Of a stretch of DNA of 64,000 bases, positions 3,497-56,758 are shown piece by piece. The stretch covers positions 96,001 through 160,000 of the forward strand of contig CAWJPJ010000005.1 of NCBI GenBank assembly GCA_963844715.1. Reading direction: 5' to 3'. The stretch comes from an uncultured Phycisphaerales bacterium (GTDB lineage: Bacteria; Planctomycetota; Phycisphaerae; Tepidisphaerales; Tepidisphaeraceae). Each line of letters begins with the position of its first letter. Position 1 is the first letter of the stretch. The translations under genes were made by a program, and so were the position numbers. The notes under the pieces are model-generated. The model saw only the letters and a list, made by a program, of their open reading frames with translations, ran no database searches and was not told where the DNA came from.

Positions 3497-3512
3497 TGGC
3501 ACGCCCCTTGAT
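3497..3512 (+). promoter_or_regulatory. Putative sigma54 (-24/-12) promoter of flgF operon
   Basis: TGGCACG-CCCC-TTGAT, one mismatch to TGGCACG-N4-TTGCW, ~40 nt before flgF. Confidence 0.7.
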
Positions 3513-3551
3513 CTAGCCCCGGTTGCTCTTTGGCGCTTGCGGAGTAACTAC

Positions 3552-4307
3552 GTGCTCTACGGACTCTATCTTTCAGCGACTGGTGTGGTGACTAACAGTT
3601 ACCGCCAGGACGTCATTGCCAACAACATCGCCAACTCCGAAACCATCGGGTTCAAGCGCGATCTGGCCCTGCTCCAGGAGCGACCCACCGCCGCCCAGGA
3701 ATTCGGCGAATCCGTTCCCGATTCCATCATCGGAAACATGACCGGCGGCATGATGGCCGTCCCCACCCAGGTCGACACCAGTCAGGGCGACCTTCAGCCG
3801 ACCGGAAATCCCCTGGATGTCGCCATCCAAGGCAACGGCTATTTCGCAGTCAATGCCAACGGAAAATTCCGCCTCACGCGCAACGGGCAGTTCGTTATGG
3901 ACCACGCCGGACGCCTGGCGCTTTTCGATGACAACGGTCCCGACGTCCTCGATAACAAGCAAACCCCCATTTATCTCTCCCCCGGGGCTCCGGTTTTGAT
4001 CTCCGAAGACGGCACGATCACCCAGAAAGGCGAGGTTGTCGCCAAGATCGGCCTGTTCGACGTGCCAAACTCGACGGACCTGAAAAAAGAAGGCAACACC
4101 CTCATGTCCGTGCAGCAGGGCGCGCAGGTTTCCACTGCCTCGGCTAAGTTCCACACTTCGTTTCTCGAACGTTCCAACGTTGATCCCGCGACAGAGTTGA
4201 CGGCTCTCATGGACGCCCAGCGCCAGCTCGAAGCCAACGCCAACATGATTCAGACTCAGGACGAAACGCTCAGCAAACTCGTCAGCGACGTAGGAAAAAT
4301 TAGCTAG
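3552..4307 (+). CDS. flgF: Flagellar basal-body rod protein FlgF
   Basis: IANNIANSETIGFK, TGNPLDVAIQGNGYF, LERSNVD; GTG start after GGAG; precedes flgG. Confidence 0.85.
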   Translation: MLYGLYLSATGVVTNSYRQDVIANNIANSETIGFKRDLALLQERPTAAQEFGESVPDSIIGNMTGGMMAVPTQVDTSQGDLQPTGNPLDVAIQGNGYFAVNANGKFRLTRNGQFVMDHAGRLALFDDNGPDVLDNKQTPIYLSPGAPVLISEDGTITQKGEVVAKIGLFDVPNSTDLKKEGNTLMSVQQGAQVSTASAKFHTSFLERSNVDPATELTALMDAQRQLEANANMIQTQDETLSKLVSDVGKIS

Positions 4308-11179: not shown

Positions 11180-13102
11180 ATGTCCGTCGTACCCGTTGGT
11201 CTTGTTCGCGTCAGCAACCTGCTGCAAACCAGCCTTGCGCAGGAGTCTATCGACAGCGTACAGAGCCAGCTTCTTCAGGTTCAGAACGAACTGACGACCG
11301 GCAAGCAGGTCAACCAGCCCAGCGACAATCCCGCCGCCGCGGCGTCCATCGAGACATTGAATCAAACCCTGGCCCAGCGCCAGACCTATTCCGACAACAT
11401 CAATTCAGCCAGCGCCCAGATGAGCGAGGCCGATTCCACCCTCGGCAATCTCACCACTCTGCTCCAGCAAGCCGAGACCATCGCCTCCAGCAACGTCGGC
11501 TCCGACGTCTCCGCCTCCCAGCAGCAAAGCGCCAGCTCCGTCGTGCAGAGCCTTTTCAATCAGGCCCTGAACGTCGGAAACACCCAGTACAACAGTATGT
11601 ATCTCTTCGGCGGCGCCGACGCTCAGCAGGCTCCGTTCTCGGCCACCAACGGCGGCGTGATGTTCGTCGGCTCGACGCAAACCCTACAAAACACCGCCGA
11701 TGCCGGACTTCTCGTCCCCTTCCAGATCGATGGCGCCAGCGTCTTCGGCTCCAACACCACCGGCGTAACCGGCACCACCAATATTTCCCCGCAGCTCACC
11801 GCCTCGACGCGCCTTTCCGATATCGCCGGCACCGCCGGTGACGGGATCCGCCTCGGCACCGTTCAAATCAGCGACGGAACCGTCACTAAAACCGTCGACC
11901 TGAGCAGTGCCTCCAGCATCGGCGACGTCGTCAACCTCATCAACAACGCCGGCGTGAGTTCCATCACCGCTTCCATCTCGGGCCAGGGTCTCACCCTTAC
12001 GGGCACCTCCGGCGAAAATATATCAGTCACCGATGTCGCGGGAACCGCCGCGGCCGACCTGGGCATCGCCACTCCCACCGGAGGAATGGGCGACGGCAAT
12101 CCCGACGTCGGCTCGTCCATGAACCCGCGCGTCACCGATCTCACCGCCATCTCCGATCTCGACGACGGCTCCGGAATCGACCCCTCCGGCATGATCATCA
12201 GCAACGGCAGCACGACCAAAACCATCACCTGGTCCGCCGGTGCGACGGTGGGGGATCTTCTCAACTCCATCAACGGCGCCGGCCTCGGAGTTCAAGCCTC
12301 GATCAACTCCGCCGGAACCGGCCTCAATATCGTCAACTCCACCCAGGGAACGACTCTTTCCATCGCCGAAAACGGCGGCGACACCGCGACCGAACTTGGG
12401 CTCCGCACCTACAGCCCGACCACGCTTCTGTCATCCATGAACAACGGCCAGGGCATCACCACCGCCGGCGCCGGAACCCCCGATTTTCAAATCACTGCCG
12501 CCAATGGAACCGTCTTCCCGGTCACCCTCGGCTCGGCGACAACCATCCAGGATGTCATCAACGCGATCAATAACGCCCCTGGAAACCCCGGCGTCACCGC
12601 CAGCTTCGCCACCACCGGCAACGGAATTGTCCTCACCGATACCACCGGTGGCAGCGGCTCGCTGGCCGTCAACGCCTTGAATAACTCCAATGTCGCCGCC
12701 GAACTCGGCCTGACCAATCCCCCGACCGGCAATACCGTCAACGGGGGCGACGTTAACCTCATTCAAAGCACCGGCGTCTTCGCCGACCTCCAGCAGCTCA
12801 TCACCGGCCTCCAGACCGGGAATTCCAAGATGATTACCGCTGCCGGAACGGGAATCCAAAACGACATTAATAACGTGATATCCGTCCGCGGCCAGGCGGG
12901 CGCCGTCGCCCAGCAACTGGCCAGCCAGCAGACCCAGATCACCCAGGAGAATACCGCGACCCAGTCGCTGATATCCCAGCTCCAGGACGTGAACATCGCC
13001 GACGCGGTCACGCAGTTCCAGCAGTTGCAGACCGCCCTGCAGGCGAGCCTGCAAACGACGGCGATGTCCCTGAGCCTCACCCTTTTGGACTTTTTGACAT
13101 GA
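11180..13102 (+). CDS. flgL: Hook-associated protein FlgL with large inserted domains
   Basis: LTTGKQVNQPSDNP, YLFGG, C-terminal LQASLQTTA...LTLLDFL. Confidence 0.92.
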   Translation: MSVVPVGLVRVSNLLQTSLAQESIDSVQSQLLQVQNELTTGKQVNQPSDNPAAAASIETLNQTLAQRQTYSDNINSASAQMSEADSTLGNLTTLLQQAETIASSNVGSDVSASQQQSASSVVQSLFNQALNVGNTQYNSMYLFGGADAQQAPFSATNGGVMFVGSTQTLQNTADAGLLVPFQIDGASVFGSNTTGVTGTTNISPQLTASTRLSDIAGTAGDGIRLGTVQISDGTVTKTVDLSSASSIGDVVNLINNAGVSSITASISGQGLTLTGTSGENISVTDVAGTAAADLGIATPTGGMGDGNPDVGSSMNPRVTDLTAISDLDDGSGIDPSGMIISNGSTTKTITWSAGATVGDLLNSINGAGLGVQASINSAGTGLNIVNSTQGTTLSIAENGGDTATELGLRTYSPTTLLSSMNNGQGITTAGAGTPDFQITAANGTVFPVTLGSATTIQDVINAINNAPGNPGVTASFATTGNGIVLTDTTGGSGSLAVNALNNSNVAAELGLTNPPTGNTVNGGDVNLIQSTGVFADLQQLITGLQTGNSKMITAAGTGIQNDINNVISVRGQAGAVAQQLASQQTQITQENTATQSLISQLQDVNIADAVTQFQQLQTALQASLQTTAMSLSLTLLDFLT

Positions 13103-13106
13103 GGCG

Positions 13107-13122
13107 TGGCACGCGGATTGCA
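13107..13122 (+). promoter_or_regulatory. Consensus sigma54 promoter; predicted TSS ~13133
   Basis: TGGCACG-CGGA-TTGCA, exact match to TGGCACG-N4-TTGCW, 5 nt after flgL stop. Confidence 0.8.
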
Positions 13123-13132
13123 AGGAAAGTGG

Positions 13133-13478
13133 TGCGATGTAGATTGCGACAGTATTATAAGCAATCGAACGCATAGGAGCGCAGAAAATTCTGCCGGGAG
13201 AGGCGGAAATTGCCGGCCGGGGACCGTGTGAAAAAACGCGGCCGGTCGGATGAATGAAAGGGACCGCGGAGACGGTCCCCGGCGCGGCGGAGCCGCGCCA
13301 CGACGCCTTTGGGGCCTTGGAGGCCCGGGCGAACCTCCGTTCTGCGGAGGGGTGAATGGATTCACGCGCGGCGGACGCCGCGCAGCAAGCCGACGGTGTG
13401 TCGCCGGCGGCGAAGGAGTCGCAAACCGGACGGTCCTCCCGTTATGGAGACGCCGGTCCATGCTGCATAGGAGCACTC
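13133..13478 (+). ncRNA. Putative CsrB/RsmZ-like GGA-hairpin array (fliW leader or sRNA)
   Basis: ~16 GGA, 11 in loops of short hairpins, e.g. gggaccg-CGGAGA-cggtccc, ggcgcggc-GGA-gccgcgcc, gggcc-TTGGA-ggccc, gtgaa-TGGA-ttcac, gcgcggc-GGAC-gccgcgc. Confidence 0.7.
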
Positions 13479-13929
13479 ATGGAAATCGAAACTTCCCGTT
13501 TCGGAGTACTGTCGATTGACGACCAGCGAATCATGACTTTCCCAAAGGGACTCCTCGGATTCCCGGGTCAGTCCAGATTCGCACTGATCAAGGCCGGCCA
13601 GAACAATTACTTCTTCTGGCTGCAAAGTGTTGACGATCCCCACCTCGCCTTCGTGGTGACGGATCCGAGCACTTTCTTCAAGGACTACGACGTCGCCCTT
13701 GCGCGATGAAACGATCGCGGACCTCGAGTTGGTCGACCCCGCCGCCATGCAGGTCTTCGTGATCTGCAACAAAGTCGGCGAATGGCTGACCGGAAATCTG
13801 CTCGGCCCGATCGTCGTCAACACCGCCAGCCGACTTGCCCAGCAAATCGTGCTGACGGAAAAGAAGTGGACGACCCGGCAGCCCCTGCTGCGGCTGCAAG
13901 CCGAGGTGCAACTGGCCAAATCGGCGTGA
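13479..13929 (+). CDS. fliW: Flagellar assembly factor FliW (frameshift near 13700)
   Basis: IETSRFG...FPKGLLGF...[34 protein letters not shown]. Confidence 0.93.
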
Positions 13930-14053
13930 GGGTGTTCAGGGGGCACGCCGGACGGTTGCGATTGCGCAACCGCGAGGCTTCGTGACAGGGATGTCATGCG
14001 ACATCGCCCGCGCCTGTTCAACAGGTCCGCGGGCTGACAGGAAGGAGCCTGAA

Positions 14054-14305
14054 ATGTTGGTTCTGTCCCGGCAGCGCGACGAAACGATCATGATCGGCGA
14101 CGACATCGAAGTGACCGTCGTCGACATCCGCGGCGATAAGGTTCGCCTCGGAATTAACGCACCAAAGGAAATCAGCGTCCACCGCAAAGAGGTCTATGAC
14201 GCTATCCGCCGCGAAAACAAAGCGGCGGCTCAAGTGAAACCCGAGGATCTTTCGGGATTAGGAAAGATCGGTTCCAAGAACCCTGACCAGGAACCTAAAC
14301 CGTAG
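14054..14305 (+). CDS. csrA: Carbon storage regulator CsrA with C-terminal extension
   Basis: [20 protein letters not shown]...[19 protein letters not shown]. Confidence 0.97.
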
Positions 14306-14372
14306 GCGGCAAAGGCTATGTTGATGTCCCGCCCAAATCGTCTATCGCCAGACACAATCATGGAGGATTGAC

Positions 14373-15806
14373 GTGTCCGTTATTAACACAAATGTCGCGG
14401 CCCTTATCGCGCAAAACGGCCTGGCAAATTCAGAGACTTCTCTAAATCAGGCGTTGCAACGCCTCAGCACCGGTCTACGCATTAACAGCGGCGCGGATGA
14501 TCCCGCCGGGTTGATCGCAAGCCAGTCGCTTCAAAGCGAGATGGCCGGTTTACAGGCGGCGATCAGCAACAGCGCCACCGCCACCAACGTGATCTCGACG
14601 GCCGATGCCGCCCTTTCCGAGGTATCGTCCCTTCTGCAAAACGTAAAGGGTCTGGTTGTCGCGTCCGCCAACTCCGGCGCTTTGTCTCCGCAGGAACTCC
14701 AGGCGAACCAGCTCCAGGTCGATTCCGCGGTGCAGAGCATCACGCGAATCGCCTCGACCACCAGTTTCGCCGGTCTCAACCTGCTCGACGGCAGTCTCGA
14801 TTACATCACCAGCGGCGTGCACAGCAGCGCCATCGCGGCGCTGAGCATCTCCCAGGCCAATCTCGGCACCGCCGTCAGCATGCCCGTCAATATCAACGTC
14901 ATCAGCAGCGCCAAGCTCGCCGATCTTCGGTTTGTGGGCAGCTCCATCGGCACCAGCACCACGCTCTCCATCGGCGGAACCGAAGGCGTTCAGACTCTCT
15001 CCTTCGTCAGCGGAACCACCGCTTCGGCGATCGCCTTTGCCGTCAACAACATCTCCGACAGCACCGGCGTCTCCGCCAATTTGATTAATAGCGCCAGTCC
15101 GACTTCCGGCGTTAATTTCACCAGCACGACCTACGGATCCAAGTCGTTCGTCTCGATCCAGGCCCAGACCGGAACCTTCACGACCGAGGACCTCACCGGC
15201 GCCGTCAAGGCCCGCAGCACCGGCGCGGACGCCGTCGCCACCATCAATGGCGCCGTCACCGTCGGATCGGGTCAGGACCTCACTCTCAATACCTCGACCC
15301 TCGATCTGAATCTAACCCTGAACAACTCCTTTGGCATTGGCCAAACGAGCTTCGCCATCACCGGAGGCGGCGCCAACTTCCAGCTCGGCTCGCAGGTCGC
15401 CAGCGACCAGCAAGTCAGCATCGGAATTGGTTCCGTTGCCGCCAGCCAGCTCGGCAATAACGCCGACGGCTTCCTGAACGATATCGCAACCGGCGGCAGC
15501 GCCACCTTGGTCGGCGGGCAAGCCGAAACGGCCAGCACAATCATCGACGACGCCATCAACCAGGTCGCCGTTCTGCGTGGAAGACTCGGCGCTTTTGAAG
15601 CCAATACGCTGGAAACCAACTCCAGCGCCTTGCAGGTAGCGCTTCAGAACGTCACCAGCAGCGAAAGTGACATCACCGACGCGAATTTCGCCCAGGAAAC
15701 CAGCAATTTGACGCGCGCTCAGATTCTGGTCCAGGCCGGAACCAGCGTCCTGGCCACCGCAAATACCATCCCGCAGACCGCTCTGACGCTGCTCACCGGC
15801 CATTAA
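14373..15806 (+). CDS. fliC: Flagellin 1
   Basis: SVINTN...[18 protein letters not shown]-terminal [19 protein letters not shown]. Confidence 0.95.
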   Translation: MSVINTNVAALIAQNGLANSETSLNQALQRLSTGLRINSGADDPAGLIASQSLQSEMAGLQAAISNSATATNVISTADAALSEVSSLLQNVKGLVVASANSGALSPQELQANQLQVDSAVQSITRIASTTSFAGLNLLDGSLDYITSGVHSSAIAALSISQANLGTAVSMPVNINVISSAKLADLRFVGSSIGTSTTLSIGGTEGVQTLSFVSGTTASAIAFAVNNISDSTGVSANLINSASPTSGVNFTSTTYGSKSFVSIQAQTGTFTTEDLTGAVKARSTGADAVATINGAVTVGSGQDLTLNTSTLDLNLTLNNSFGIGQTSFAITGGGANFQLGSQVASDQQVSIGIGSVAASQLGNNADGFLNDIATGGSATLVGGQAETASTIIDDAINQVAVLRGRLGAFEANTLETNSSALQVALQNVTSSESDITDANFAQETSNLTRAQILVQAGTSVLATANTIPQTALTLLTGH

Positions 15807-15838
15807 TCGCCGGCTGAAGGAAAAATTTTTTCCGCGCT

Positions 15839-15872
15839 AAGGCGGCCCGATTTCGGGTCGCCTTTTTCTTTT
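15839..15872 (+). terminator. Rho-independent terminator after flagellin 1
   Basis: aaggcggcccga-tt-tcgggtcgcctt followed by T run. Confidence 0.85.
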
Positions 15873-15987
15873 GTGCCAATAAATCTCCCGCCGGCGCGGC
15901 TGATCGCCGCGACTCCGCCCTTCTCATCCGCGAACTCTGCCGCCACGTTTGGGTTGCTCTGAAAAAATTCACGCCATCCCTCACATC

Positions 15988-16015
15988 TAAAGTGCCCCTA
16001 TCTCGCCGTCGATAC
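15988..16015 (+). promoter_or_regulatory. Putative sigma28 (FliA/SigD) promoter of flagellin 2
   Basis: TAAA-N16-GTCGATAC vs consensus TAAA-N15/16-GCCGATAW. Confidence 0.7.
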
Positions 16016-16212
16016 GCGGAGTGAAGCCCAGTGCTGCTGAACAGGCTGTCAAGCACTTGGCCGACTTGCACGGTAGGGGGCGAGCTTTTGTGAAGTGGGA
16101 CCGCTTAGCCGGGTGGGTCCCATGCGGCGGCCTGATGACTGTCCGGTTTCCCCTGACCTGACAGCGTCCGCCAGAACAGGGAAGGCGTACATCGCCATGG
16201 AGCAAGTGTCTT

Positions 16213-17625
16213 ATGAGCGTCATTAATACAAACGTCAGTTCGTTGATCGCGCAAAACGCTCTTCAACAGAACAACCAGGCGCTGTCGACCAGCCTTGAAC
16301 GGCTTAGCACCGGTCTCCGCATCAACAGCGGTGCCGATGACCCGTCAGGTCTGATCGCCAGCCAATCGTTGCAGCAGGAACAGACCGGCATTCAAACCGC
16401 CATCAGCAACGCCAGCCTCGCTGGCAACGTCATTGGTACGGCTGAAGGTGGTCTGAATGAAGTCAGCAGCCTGCTGCTTCAGCTTCAAGGTCTCGTCGGC
16501 CAGGCAGCCAATACCGGCGGCCTCAGCTCCGACGAAGTCCAGGCCGACCAGTTGCAGGTGGACTCCATTCTCTCCACCATCAACCGCATTGCCGGCTCGA
16601 CGACTTTCGAAGGCCAGCAGCTCCTAAACGGCAATCTCGACTACACCACCAGCGGCGTCACCGCCTCGGCGGTCACCGCTCTTGAGGTGAACAGCGCCCT
16701 CGTGCCCGACGGCGGGACCGTCGGCGTCGCCGTGCAGGTCGTCAGCTCCGGCAAGACCGGAACCGTCACCTACACCGGCGGCACCGTCACCGGCAGCACC
16801 GTCACCCTCCAGGTCTCCGGCAACGCCGGTACGACCCAGTTGTCATTCGCGTCGGGAACCACGATCTCCTCGATCGTGACCGCCATCAACGGCGTCAAGA
16901 CCTCCACGGGTCTTTCCGCCCAGGTCAGCGGCACCGACATCCGAATCAACTCCACTGAGTTTGGTTCAACCCAGTTCGTCAGCGTCCAGGCGATTGAGGG
17001 CACCGTCAGCGGCCTCAGTTCGACGAACAAGCAGTTCGGAAGTGACGCCGACGTGACCGTCAACGGCGCCGCCGCCAACGTCAGCGGTCTGGCCGTCAGC
17101 TATCGTAACTCGAACCTCGACGTCAGCTTCGACGTGGCTCAGAAGTATGACAAGCCCGGTTCGCAGACCTTCTACATTACCGGCGGCGGAGCGACCTTCG
17201 CCCTCGGTTCCTCGGTCACCGCGACCAACAATGCCTCCATCGGTATTGCTTCGGTCTCCACCAGCAGCCTGGGTAACGTCAATGACGGATTCCTCAGCTC
17301 GCTGGGAAGCGGCGGAACCAACAGCCTCTCCAGCGGGAACCTGACCACCGCTCAGAATATTTTGAGCGATTCGATCAATCAGGTTAGTAACCTCCGCGGT
17401 CGTCTCGGTGCGTTCCAATCGTTGACCATCGGGTCGACGGTGAACAGCCTGGGCGTCGCGTACGAAAACGTGTCGGCCGCCGAATCGGCGATTACCGATA
17501 CCGACTTCGCTTCGGAAACCAGTAACCTGACCCGCGATCAGATCCTGTCTCAGGCGGCCACCACCGTCCTGGCTCAGGCGAACGCGGTTCCTCAGGAGGC
17601 CTTGACGCTCCTTCAAGGCCACTAA
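16213..17625 (+). CDS. fliC: Flagellin 2
   Basis: Conserved flagellin N- and C-terminal domains. Confidence 0.95.
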   Translation: MSVINTNVSSLIAQNALQQNNQALSTSLERLSTGLRINSGADDPSGLIASQSLQQEQTGIQTAISNASLAGNVIGTAEGGLNEVSSLLLQLQGLVGQAANTGGLSSDEVQADQLQVDSILSTINRIAGSTTFEGQQLLNGNLDYTTSGVTASAVTALEVNSALVPDGGTVGVAVQVVSSGKTGTVTYTGGTVTGSTVTLQVSGNAGTTQLSFASGTTISSIVTAINGVKTSTGLSAQVSGTDIRINSTEFGSTQFVSVQAIEGTVSGLSSTNKQFGSDADVTVNGAAANVSGLAVSYRNSNLDVSFDVAQKYDKPGSQTFYITGGGATFALGSSVTATNNASIGIASVSTSSLGNVNDGFLSSLGSGGTNSLSSGNLTTAQNILSDSINQVSNLRGRLGAFQSLTIGSTVNSLGVAYENVSAAESAITDTDFASETSNLTRDQILSQAATTVLAQANAVPQEALTLLQGH

Positions 17626-54339: not shown

Positions 54340-54578
54340 TGCTCCTCTGCCATGTGCTTGCGATTTCGACGCCCGGAACGAGCGGTCTCGTCCGTGGATA
54401 TTATCCGAAGGGCGTGGCTTATGGGTACGGGGAAATTTTTGAGCGAGCCGGAGTGTTGCGGATCGATTTTTGCGAGCTGGACGGAACGGCGTGGTGCGGA
54501 AGGAACGGGGCGGCGCGGTTGCGCCGTTCGTCGCCGACAAATGGGGGTTCCTTGGGATTGGGCGAAATCGGGGACGAG

Positions 54579-55643
54579 TTAATTCGTCAAAAAGCTGCGG
54601 GTTTTGAGCCATTGGGCGGCGAGTTTTGGCCAAGTGCTCAGCTCCGGGTCATCGCCGCCGAGGGCGAAGGCGTGTTTGCCGTGGTCGAAGATGTGGAGTT
54701 CGAATGGGACGCCGGCGGATTGGAGAGCTTGGGCGAACATCAGGCTGTTCTCAACCGGCGCGGTGTGATCATCCGTCGCGTGGACCAGGAAACAGGGGGG
54801 AGTATCGGAAGTCACATGTAACTCGTTGCTGGTTTCTTGTTCGAGATCGGGGTCGGGGTTGTCGCCTAGCAATTCCTGGCGGGAAATGTTGTGCGTGTAG
54901 GCGTCTAGCATGGTGATGACGGGGTAGACGAGGATGGTCAGGTCGGGGCGCGAGGATTGGCGATCGATCGGGTCCCAGGCGGCGGGGTCGCCGGGGTCGA
55001 AATGGGTGGAGACGAGGGCGGCCAGGTGTCCGCCGGCGGAGAAGCCGATGATGCCGATGTGATTCGGATTCAAGTGGAAGTCGCTGGCGCGAAAGCGGAT
55101 CAGGCGGAGGGCGCGCTGGACGTCCTGGAGTTGGACGGGGTAGTGATATTTTGGGCCGAGGCGATATTTGAGGATGAAGGCGGAGATGCCGAGAGAGTTG
55201 AGCCAACGGGCGACGGGTTCGCCTTCGCGGAGGCCGTAGTGGTTATAGGCGCCGCCCTGGCAGATGATGATGGCGGAATCGGTAGCGCGGTCGGGGGCCG
55301 GGAGGTAGGGGAGGAGTTTGGGGATGTCGGCGTCGGCGTCGCCGAAGGAGTTTGGGGCGGCGGTGGTCCATAAGGGGATGGGAGCGCCGGCGGTGGAAGA
55401 AGGTTCTGTTGTGGGCTGAGTGGCGGCCTGGGTGGTGGGCATCGTGGATTGGGCGCGGGCCGATTCGACGATCAAGCAGAGCGCCGTCAACAGAATGATC
55501 GCCGCGCTGCGCTTCGTCGCGGTGAGACGATGTCGGGAGTGGGCGAGCGGTTCTGCCTTTGAAGGATTGCCCCTCACCCTTGCCCTCTCCCCGGAGTACC
55601 GGGGAGAGGGGATAAGAGTGTCGGTGCTGGGTTTCGTATTCAT
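54579..55643 (-). CDS. Secreted alpha/beta hydrolase (esterase)
   Basis: GGAY, GFSAGGH, HATDD, GKHAF; hydrophobic signal ending ARAQ. Confidence 0.9.
   Translation of the reverse strand: MNTKPSTDTLIPSPRYSGERARVRGNPSKAEPLAHSRHRLTATKRSAAIILLTALCLIVESARAQSTMPTTQAATQPTTEPSSTAGAPIPLWTTAAPNSFGDADADIPKLLPYLPAPDRATDSAIIICQGGAYNHYGLREGEPVARWLNSLGISAFILKYRLGPKYHYPVQLQDVQRALRLIRFRASDFHLNPNHIGIIGFSAGGHLAALVSTHFDPGDPAAWDPIDRQSSRPDLTILVYPVITMLDAYTHNISRQELLGDNPDPDLEQETSNELHVTSDTPPCFLVHATDDHTAPVENSLMFAQALQSAGVPFELHIFDHGKHAFALGGDDPELSTWPKLAAQWLKTRSFLTN
55569..55615. repeat. CCCTCTCCC-type palindromic repeat, copy 2
   Basis: gcccctcacccttgccctctccccggagtaccggggagaggggataa. Confidence 0.85.
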
Positions 55644-56758
55644 TTCAGGTTTTCGGGGTTGAGGGGTTTTAGGGTCGGGAGCGTGAAGCGGCCGTTTTTT
55701 CTGATGAGGGTTTTGTCGAACCAGATTTCTCCGCCGCCGGCTTCTGGGGTTTGACGCATGACCAGGTCCCAGTGGATGGCGCTTTTATTTCCGTTGCTGG
55801 CTTCGTCGTAGCAGGCGCCGGGGGTGAAGTGGATGCTGCCGGCGATTTTTTCGTCGAAGAGGATGTCTTTCATGGGTTTGATGCAATACGGATTGAAGCC
55901 GATGGCGAATTCGCCGACGTATCTTGCTCCGGGGTCGGTGTTGAGGACTTCGTTGAGTTTGTCGGTGTCGGTGCTGATGGCGCGGATGATTTTGCCATTT
56001 TTGAATTCGAGTTTGACGTCGTTGTGGGTGGTGCCGCGGTAGATGGTGGGGCAGTTGAAGCGGATGACGCCGTTGACCGATTCGCGCACGGGGGCGGTGA
56101 AGACTTCGCCGTCGGGAATGTTCACTTTTCCGTCGCAGCAGATGGCGGGGATATTTTTGATGCTGAAAGTGAGGTCGGTTTCGCCGGGGCCTTTAAGGCG
56201 GACTTTGTCGGTTTTTTCCATGAGCTTTTTGAGCGGCTGCATGGCCCGGCTCATTTTGGCATAGTCGAGCGTGCAGACGTTGAAATAGAAATCCTCGAAC
56301 GCTTCAGTGCTCATCTCGGCCATCTGGGCCATCGACGGATGCGGCCAGCGGAGGACGCACCAGCGGGTTTTGGTGATGCGGACGTCGCGGTGGACTTTTT
56401 TCCAGACGGTGGATTCGTAGAGTTTCTGCTTGTCGGCGGGGACGTCGGAAAGTTCGGAGACGTTGGCGTTGCCTCGGGCGCCGATGTAGCAGTCGACGCT
56501 TTTCATTTGCAGGCGTTCGATCTTCGCGATGAGTTCCCACTGCTTTTTCGAGCCGTGGAGCATGAGGGCGCGATTGATCTGGTTGTTCTTGAGCATCACC
56601 AGGGGATTGCCGCCGGCTTCGGTGGCATGACGGATAAGAGCGGCGGAGAATTCATTGGGGACGTCGATGGCCTCGATGAGAATGTTCTCGCCTTTTTTTA
56701 CGGAGCAGGAATAGCGGATAAGCATTTTGGCTAGTTTGTCGATGCGGGGGTCTAGCAT
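55640..56758 (-). CDS. Aminopeptidase, peptidase M29 family
   Basis: NIPDGEVFTAP, VGEFAIG, LFDEKIAGSIH, SAIHWD. Confidence 0.93.
   Translation of the reverse strand: MLDPRIDKLAKMLIRYSCSVKKGENILIEAIDVPNEFSAALIRHATEAGGNPLVMLKNNQINRALMLHGSKKQWELIAKIERLQMKSVDCYIGARGNANVSELSDVPADKQKLYESTVWKKVHRDVRITKTRWCVLRWPHPSMAQMAEMSTEAFEDFYFNVCTLDYAKMSRAMQPLKKLMEKTDKVRLKGPGETDLTFSIKNIPAICCDGKVNIPDGEVFTAPVRESVNGVIRFNCPTIYRGTTHNDVKLEFKNGKIIRAISTDTDKLNEVLNTDPGARYVGEFAIGFNPYCIKPMKDILFDEKIAGSIHFTPGACYDEASNGNKSAIHWDLVMRQTPEAGGGEIWFDKTLIRKNGRFTLPTLKPLNPENLK

Follow-up and report, generated by a model that had tools for sequence, protein, structure and literature searches.

A leader rich in GGA hairpins ahead of fliW and csrA in the Tepidisphaeraceae: a candidate multi-site CsrA-binding RNA

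CsrA, whose sites are GGA triplets in RNA hairpin loops, is thought to be restrained either by sponge small RNAs (sRNAs), as in Gammaproteobacteria, or by the protein FliW, as in most other flagellated phyla. FliW is anti-correlated with the sRNAs driven by BarA-UvrY (PMC4682653), and a 2020 review of the Csr system states that joint action of FliW and sRNAs in any species is still to be determined (PMC7652899; this and the other sources given by PMC number are cited from the portions of their text available). In Campylobacter jejuni, the leader of the flaA mRNA is repressed by CsrA and also titrates CsrA alongside FliW (Dugar et al. 2016, PMC4894983). Within the Planctomycetota, CsrA is reported to be widespread (PMC13443453), and sigma-54 promoters have been predicted at csrA (COG1551) in the Planctomycetia, including Pirellula sp. 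strain 1 (PMC12316311). No report of CsrA control of fliW, or of GGA arrays in Planctomycetota, was found in a literature search that most subscription journals lay outside. The locus described here lies in a 64,000-nt stretch of DNA (the window; contig CAWJPJ010000005.1, positions 96,001 to 160,000) from an uncultured Phycisphaerales bacterium of the family Tepidisphaeraceae, in which the spacer between flgL and fliW carries a sigma-54-type promoter followed by a long array of GGA hairpins.

The elements at the center of this work are these:
13107 to 13122, + strand: sigma-54 -24/-12 promoter, TGGCAC-N5-TTGCA, read directly; it lies 4 nt past the flgL stop codon
13133 to 13478, + strand: non-coding 5' leader of ~346 nt with 16 GGA and 13 predicted hairpins, its start placed from the -12 element
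13479 to 13929, + strand: fliW, found as PF02623 halves because an extra base at 13699 splits it in the window
14054 to 14305, + strand: csrA, 83 residues with a C-terminal extension (PF02599, E 4.6e-26)

The leader is probably a multi-site CsrA-binding 5' leader that places fliW under CsrA feedback and can titrate CsrA in cis. As part of the same reading, which is favored though by no means certain, a fliW-csrA(-flagellin) mRNA would be transcribed in a sigma-54-dependent way, and the stretch would be its 5' untranslated leader and act as a multivalent platform for CsrA.

The sequence at 13107-13122, TGGCACGCGGATTGCA, is an exact sigma-54 -24/-12 consensus (a GG-N10-GC core in TGGCAC-N5-TTGCW). 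The exact pattern TGGCAC-N5-TTGCW has 3 sites in the 4.55-Mb genome, and the reversed control pattern has 1+1. If at most 1 mismatch is allowed, there are 2 sites in the window versus 1.4 expected, so that the match is not significant alone and its weight comes from conservation. For this, a family sample of 73 fliW loci was used, one per Tepidisphaeraceae genus and with genome G004 left out (G004 enters only the whole-leader alignment tally and the 112-genome fliW tally below). After 9 loci without a flgL match in the stretch had been dropped, there were 65 flgL-fliW spacers, including that of the window, with lengths of 73-600 nt. The sigma-54 consensus is present at 0-1 mismatch in 55 of the 65, exactly in 27, and it always lies at the 5' edge of the spacer, directly past the flgL stop. 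The genome encodes rpoN (PF04552, E 1.3e-59) and has 20 PF00158 matches, which correspond to about 10 genes for bacterial enhancer-binding proteins (bEBPs), several of them split. Within 450 nt upstream of csrA, no sigma-54 consensus was found in the 73 family loci.

Other sigma-54-like sites were seen as well. One of them (TGGCACGCCCCTTGAT, 1 mismatch, 3497-3512) lies 25 nt before flgF and heads the series flgF-flgG-flgA-flgH-flgI-(rod-binding)-flgK-flgL; unlike the fliW promoter, it has a short leader. Another exact site, elsewhere in the genome (G000:C8:798735-798750, locus L003), has CCCAUAGGAGCG and a start codon in the 30 nt after it, in a Shine-Dalgarno (SD) context similar to the GCAUAGGAGC hairpins of the fliW leader. 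The frame that follows has 108 residues from its ATG, lies inside an open reading frame (ORF) of 162 residues and was assigned to no family.

The leader is unusual both in its GGA content and in its folding. Between 13107 and 13481 there are 18 complete GGA, where the + strand of the window has a mean of 5.4 +/- 3.2 per 375 nt (99.85th percentile). The same 375 nt contain 5 TCC, although TCC is the commoner triplet over the + strand of the window as a whole (9.07 versus 5.44 per 375 nt). From 13133 to 13482, 16 GGA are present, as against 10.3 +/- 2.3 in dinucleotide shuffles, of which 2 of 300 reached 16. The minimum free energy (MFE) of the leader is -175.0 kcal/mol, versus -145.8 +/- 5.9 kcal/mol in shuffles (none of 300 as low; z about -4.9), and its 13 predicted hairpins compare with 7.0 +/- 1.5. 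Eight GGA have at least 2 of their 3 bases in a hairpin loop of the MFE structure, which defines a loop GGA here; shuffles have 1.3 +/- 1.1, and none of 300 reached 8. A permissive genome-wide hairpin count, in which 4-bp stems were accepted, did not single out the leader, since many windows along the genome have 10-11 GGA-loop hairpins, and a stricter definition was applied for this reason. When a stem of at least 5 bp and a loop of 3-8 nt holding GGA are called for, the leader has 6 such hairpins; 350 nt of the genome hold 0.51 +/- 0.77 on average, and among 26,014 non-overlapping windows there are 3 with at least as many as the leader.

The highest GGA density on the + strand of the window lies elsewhere (20 per 375 nt at about 54400-56700, with its peak near 55026), antisense to the - strand ORFs 54579-55643 and 55640-56758. 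Since this peak is antisense to TCC-rich coding sequence, it is a codon-bias effect and not an RNA element.

No conserved ORF was found in the leader; its six-frame pieces match the leaders of relatives on either strand and in more than one frame, and the matches fall on the same spots, which are conserved as nucleotides. Nor is there an intrinsic terminator between 13107 and fliW. The only one on the + strand in 12900-16400 (15839-15864 plus a T run) follows the flagellin 1 gene. Among the 65 family leaders, only 6 have a terminator-like site, which in 2 cases overlaps the promoter. A search with cmscan of 12000-16500 against Rfam, at E up to 10, gave 9 weak unrelated matches and neither CsrB, CsrC, RsmX, RsmY or RsmZ nor a riboswitch family. 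Direct repeats of at least 11 nt were not found inside the leader, and its hairpin strings are not dispersed repeats (1-3 genomic copies each, except for the two shortest cores and one 10-mer). A preliminary description of this DNA, made from the letters alone, had pointed to an exact sigma-54 site at 13107-13122, to ~345 nt after it without a credible ORF, to ~16 GGA there and to the lack of a terminator before fliW. All of this holds, and the placement of GGA in hairpin loops that it described stands up to shuffling. The same text listed 11 GGA-loop hairpins; 8 of them, given below with their loops in brackets, occur base for base in the global MFE structure, and the other 3 lie outside it.

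13170 to 13181, + strand: CGC[AUAGGA]GCG, in the fold; nearly identical to the fliW SD hairpin, with a probability of 0.98 that the GGA is unpaired
13189 to 13208, + strand: UUCUGCC[GGGAGA]GGCGGAA, in the fold; its helix is 94% paired in 5 relatives
13260 to 13279, + strand: GGGACCG[CGGAGA]CGGUCCC, in the fold; -12.6 kcal/mol alone
13281 to 13299, + strand: GGCGCGGC[GGA]GCCGCGCC, in the fold; -16.2 kcal/mol alone
13312 to 13326, + strand: GGGCCU[UGG]AGGCCC, in the fold; the GGA is at the loop edge
13352 to 13365, + strand: GUGAA[UGGA]UUCAC, in the fold
13366 to 13383, + strand: GCGCGGC[GGAC]GCCGCGC, in the fold; -14.2 kcal/mol alone
13464 to 13475, + strand: UGC[AUAGGA]GCA, in the fold; the fliW Shine-Dalgarno hairpin, with the family consensus GAA[A(U/C)GGAG]UUC

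Leaders of this kind recur at the same place in related genomes. Beyond the genus, in which it has 74% identity to G001 and aligns in parts to G002, the sequence itself no longer aligns over its full length, and only its first ~115 nt align to two other genera. Across the 65 family spacers, there are 789 GGA versus 583 in shuffles and 240 loop GGA versus 83.5, with 58 of the 65 leaders exceeding their own shuffle mean (15 shuffles each). GGA is the commonest loop trinucleotide in the family leaders, being present in 213 of 587 loops, and the ratio of GGA to TCC is 789:181 (4.4:1). In the window and the 4 relatives that can be aligned to it, local hairpins are 70.9% paired, versus 34-45% for slid partners. 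The same five leaders have 17 pairs altered on both sides, a number of compensatory changes reached by 3 of 500 shuffles. Together with the 55 promoters, these counts indicate that the leader design, a promoter followed by GGA hairpins, is conserved across the Tepidisphaeraceae.

A weaker trend extends to other Planctomycetota. In 29 flgL-fliW spacers of 76-372 nt from metagenome-assembled genomes of Planctomycetaceae, Phycisphaeraceae and Algisphaera (loci L152-L189), no sigma-54 consensus is present (at least 3 mismatches). Nevertheless, there are 59 loop GGA versus 25.8 in shuffles, 22 of the 29 lie above their shuffle mean, and GGA:TCC is 227:39. Many of the named Planctomycetota loci probably duplicate sampled genomes and thus are not independent. 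Since these spacers are rich in GGA and lack the sigma-54 consensus, the GGA feature would be older and wider than the promoter.

The array leads into the translation start of fliW, and GGA hairpins recur at the two following genes, where these features were seen:
13930 to 14053, + strand: fliW-csrA spacer, read directly, with 4 GGA, the hairpin UGACA[GGGA]UGUCA (13983-13996) and the csrA SD CAGGAAGGAGCC (14038-14049)
14355 to 14370, + strand: flagellin start-region hairpin CAAUC[AUGGAG]GAUUG, read directly, which resembles a textbook CsrA operator

In the family, 61 of 65 leaders have a GGA in the last 16 nt before fliW. The hexaloop A[U/C]GGAG with GAA/UUC flanks is the fliW SD in 51 of the 60 leaders that have GGAG near the start, and its flanks are 84% paired, versus 36-61% for slid partners; they are conserved, not covarying. 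Upstream of this SD, GGA occur at 13446, 13428, 13415 and beyond, at a spacing of 8-42 nt, which a CsrA dimer could bridge. The fliW-csrA spacers of the family have a median of 203 nt and contain 492 GGA versus 194 TCC (71 loci). The csrA SD CCCAGGAAGGAGCC, preceded by this GGA-rich spacer, is nearly invariant, and the csrA start region also carries a conserved AGGAAGGAG; the long GGA-rich spacer and the nearly invariant SD suggest CsrA autoregulation. All of the 17 family loci that extend to the start of flagellin have a hairpin there with GGAG in the loop and each of the three pairs beside it formed. In 14 of these the loop is the A(U/C)GGAG hexaloop that the fliW SD also has, and in most the 5-bp stem is CAAUC/GAUUG. 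Thus, fliW, csrA and flagellin all carry predicted CsrA-type sites at their ribosome-binding sites, and fliW has, besides, the long array of such candidate sites.

How such an mRNA might work follows the pattern of CsrA-repressed leaders of the hag, flaA and glgC type, whose features are present here: an SD GGA in a hairpin loop, upstream GGA and a cognate CsrA. The components of the partner switch are also linked, namely FliW, a C-terminally extended CsrA and a flagellin with a GGA start hairpin. Repression of fliW translation would come from free CsrA dimers that occupy the SD hairpin as well as sites upstream of it, and CsrA would probably repress csrA too, by way of the fliW-csrA spacer. 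FliW, CsrA and flagellin synthesis would then all answer to one flagellin-FliW-CsrA partner switch, with the FliW:CsrA ratio held fixed. The ~16 sites could hold roughly 8 CsrA dimers per transcript, and 2-4 are enough to occlude an SD. Because of this excess, each transcript may also sequester CsrA in cis or locally, which could have a buffering or timing effect once the sigma-54 flagellar gene class fires. The plain cis role, in which CsrA represses fliW through the conserved SD hexaloop, appears at least as likely as a sponge. A broader proposal is possible but doubtful. According to it, the Planctomycetota would have a two-tier antagonism of CsrA, with FliW as one tier and a CsrB-scale decoy array on the fliW-csrA mRNA, switched by sigma-54, as the other. 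Each middle/late flagellar burst would then bring with it a CsrA sink (up to ~8 dimers per transcript) that determines when the flagellin checkpoint acts and in what stoichiometry.

The 5' end of the leader differs from the rest in being conserved as sequence:
13142 to 13232, + strand: sequence-conserved 5' module, from an alignment of 52 family leaders; hairpin GAUUGC...GCAAUC, then GCGCAGAAAA..YUGCC..loop..GGCRGAAA..GC

The 52 aligned leaders have ATTGC..GCAAT in common, followed by GCGCAGAAAA..YUGCC..GCGCAGAA..GC. A duplicated GCGCAGAA(A), its copies about 23 nt apart, flanks the YUGCC...GGCR hairpin, and each of the GCGCAG copies is a possible pairing partner for the central YUGC. RNAalifold gave no consensus structure for the 52 aligned modules. 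Two structures drawn by hand are 69-73% paired, which is not above column shuffles, and thus no structure is claimed for the module. The module may be an RNA switch, a site for another RNA-binding protein or a DNA enhancer.

Several observations weigh against the reading of the leader as a CsrA platform. The counts of GGA in loops depend on MFE predictions, and the hairpins at 13410-22, 13425-34 and 13440-52, which were among those listed earlier, are absent from the MFE structure and reach -0.7 to -2.8 kcal/mol alone. Many of the leader loops are GC-clamped triloops (GGA) that may be poor CsrA sites. By the strict count, the leader is extreme and not unique, as about 20 sliding-window peaks in the genome reach 6-7, with a maximum of 7. 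The structure that was tested on five leaders derives from one of those five sequences. Covariation in the 5' module does not exceed that in column shuffles, and the module may have a purpose unrelated to CsrA. Finally, short-read contigs barely extend into 13225-13372, and indel errors are present in the assembly.

The last doubt about the module is the starting point for the strongest alternative, that of a structured leader unrelated to CsrA, which would stabilize the mRNA, pause transcription or bind another factor. It is improbable as an account of the whole leader, and it draws on the 5' module, with its conserved sequence, its duplication and its lack of covariation above shuffles, and on a promoter that begins only 4 nt past flgL. 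In one form of it, a flagellar bEBP could use the conserved block (about +35 to +95) as a downstream DNA enhancer, placed there because the flgL coding sequence occupies the upstream side; a resemblance to the FlbD ftr enhancer is a tentative lead. However, the helices proposed for the module often contain G-U pairs (20 of 52 at pair 66-73), a sign of an RNA rather than a DNA role, and GCGCAGAAAA..YTGCC, the extended motif, has a single copy in the genome and is thus not a shared flagellar enhancer. More generally, a role apart from CsrA leaves unexplained why GGA is the top loop trinucleotide, why it exceeds TCC more than fourfold and why fliW and flagellin share a hexaloop. Such a role could hold for the 5' module, but it does not explain the GGA statistics.

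A second alternative, somewhat less probable still, keeps CsrA and changes the form of the RNA. The leader would be cut or terminated from the sigma-54 transcript and act in trans beside FliW as a CsrB-like decoy, drawing CsrA (either paralogue) off flagellin and other mRNAs. The number of sites is in its favor, 16 GGA in ~350 nt being reportedly on the scale of CsrB or RsmZ rather than of an ordinary operator. So is the mode of leader evolution, in which hairpins of the GCGGAGCC type are gained and lost in the manner of sponge RNAs, and so is the presence in the genome of a second CsrA that is unlinked to FliW. Nevertheless, the window has no terminator before fliW and few relatives have anything like one, Rfam holds no match, and the array runs into the conserved SD hairpin, which favors action in cis. 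The suggestion in the preliminary description that the element is built into the fliW-csrA mRNA leader fits these observations. That the array is a chance or compositional feature of a GC-rich spacer, with no function, is very improbable. Sequence of this kind does fold readily, as the permissive count illustrates, yet dinucleotide shuffles, which control for composition, are exceeded by nearly all of the family leaders, the promoter and the SD hairpin are conserved in position, and most spacers from other Planctomycetota have the same trend.

The genes around the leader are mostly flagellar:
3537 to 4307, + strand: flgF (Pfam), followed by flgG, flgA, flgH, flgI and a rod-binding protein
11180 to 13102, + strand: flgK and flgL (Pfam)
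14373 to 15806, + strand: flagellin 1 (Pfam Flagellin_N and Flagellin_C)
15839 to 15874, + strand: intrinsic terminator with an 11-bp stem and a T run, the first on this strand after the promoter
16213 to 17625, + strand: flagellin 2 (Pfam)

Both CsrA and FliW are canonical; the best solved relative of CsrA is 5dmb_D, aligned over residues 2-69, and that of FliW is 5dmb_A. The genome has two PF02599 genes, of which one is the csrA 575 nt downstream on the same strand. The other (G000:C7:112309-112464, - strand, locus L109) encodes a second CsrA paralogue of 76 residues, is unlinked to fliW and has a short leader containing ACGGAAGGAUG and the SD CCAGGAAGGUGA. Upstream of flagellin 2, at about 15989-16018, there is a sigma-28-like motif, TAAA..N15..CGATA, with a leader of ~190 nt, and the stretch from csrA to flagellin 1 contains a weaker motif of the same kind.

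The reliability of the sequence was judged against short-read contigs from four soil-metagenome runs of one study. These match 13074-13224 and 13373-13482 without difference, and they are one base shorter than the window at each of 10306, 10781 and 13699. In the family, fliW is unsplit in 112 of the 112 other genomes that have it. The frameshifts in flgK and fliW are thus assembly indels and do not mark pseudogenes. Errors of this kind probably also lower the estimate of genome completeness (85%) and split several of the bEBP genes.

If the favored reading is correct, a large array of CsrA sites resides on the very mRNA that encodes CsrA and FliW, family-wide and more weakly across the phylum. 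Under the more doubtful two-tier proposal, FliW and a dedicated RNA sponge would work together throughout a lineage, which bears on the question left by the 2020 review (PMC7652899). The locus also raises ideas that can be tested, namely fliW as a CsrA target, a self-buffered switch and a sigma-54 input, and it makes the leader a concrete candidate for a regulatory RNA in Planctomycetota.

The C. jejuni flaA leader is the closest precedent. In both cases, as far as the available text on flaA describes it, an mRNA leader with GGA hairpins belongs to the flagellar regulon of a host that has FliW and lacks CsrB-type sRNAs. However, flaA encodes flagellin, whereas the array described here precedes fliW and csrA, and CsrA binding was experimentally shown for flaA, whereas here it is predicted from sequence. 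The flaA leader is reportedly short, with two stem-loops, versus ~16 GGA over ~346 nt here. The promoters also differ, flaA being sigma-28-dependent (PMC4894983) and the present leader having a sigma-54-type promoter. The preliminary description had suggested that this organism may combine FliW with titration by RNA; such a combination has a precedent, as the flaA leader does just that (PMC4894983).

With CsrB, CsrC, RsmX, RsmY and RsmZ, the leader shares many closely spaced GGA hairpin loops and a rapid turnover of repeated hairpins. These sRNAs are activated by UvrY/GacA, whereas the leader has a sigma-54 promoter, is without an Rfam match or a terminator of its own and is fused to a coding mRNA. 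The preliminary label of CsrB-like is thus not supported in the sense of membership in these families. Two other mRNAs with CsrA-binding leaders are reportedly on a smaller scale: CsrA is said to bind several GGA sites of its own mRNA in Escherichia coli, and the 5' untranslated region of the Salmonella fim mRNA is said to sequester CsrA, in both cases with no FliW, fewer sites and another promoter. The gene order of Bacillus subtilis, flgK-flgL-fliW-csrA-flagellin, is reportedly the same neighborhood as that seen here. The hag mRNA and the Hag-FliW-CsrA switch of B. subtilis resemble the present system further in having a C-terminally extended CsrA and a GGA hairpin that overlaps the flagellin SD. 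By contrast, in the available text of the review CsrA of B. subtilis represses hag only, and neither a GGA array nor control of fliW is described there (PMC7652899). The study of sigma-54 promoters at csrA concerns promoters only, in the class Planctomycetia; the portion of its text available mentions neither a leader RNA nor a GGA array, and the term FliW is absent from it (PMC12316311). CsrA-binding leaders, CsrA titrators carried on mRNAs and a predicted link between sigma-54 and csrA in Planctomycetota are thus already known, and what is new here is the CsrB-scale array, its placement on the fliW-csrA mRNA and its sigma-54 drive.

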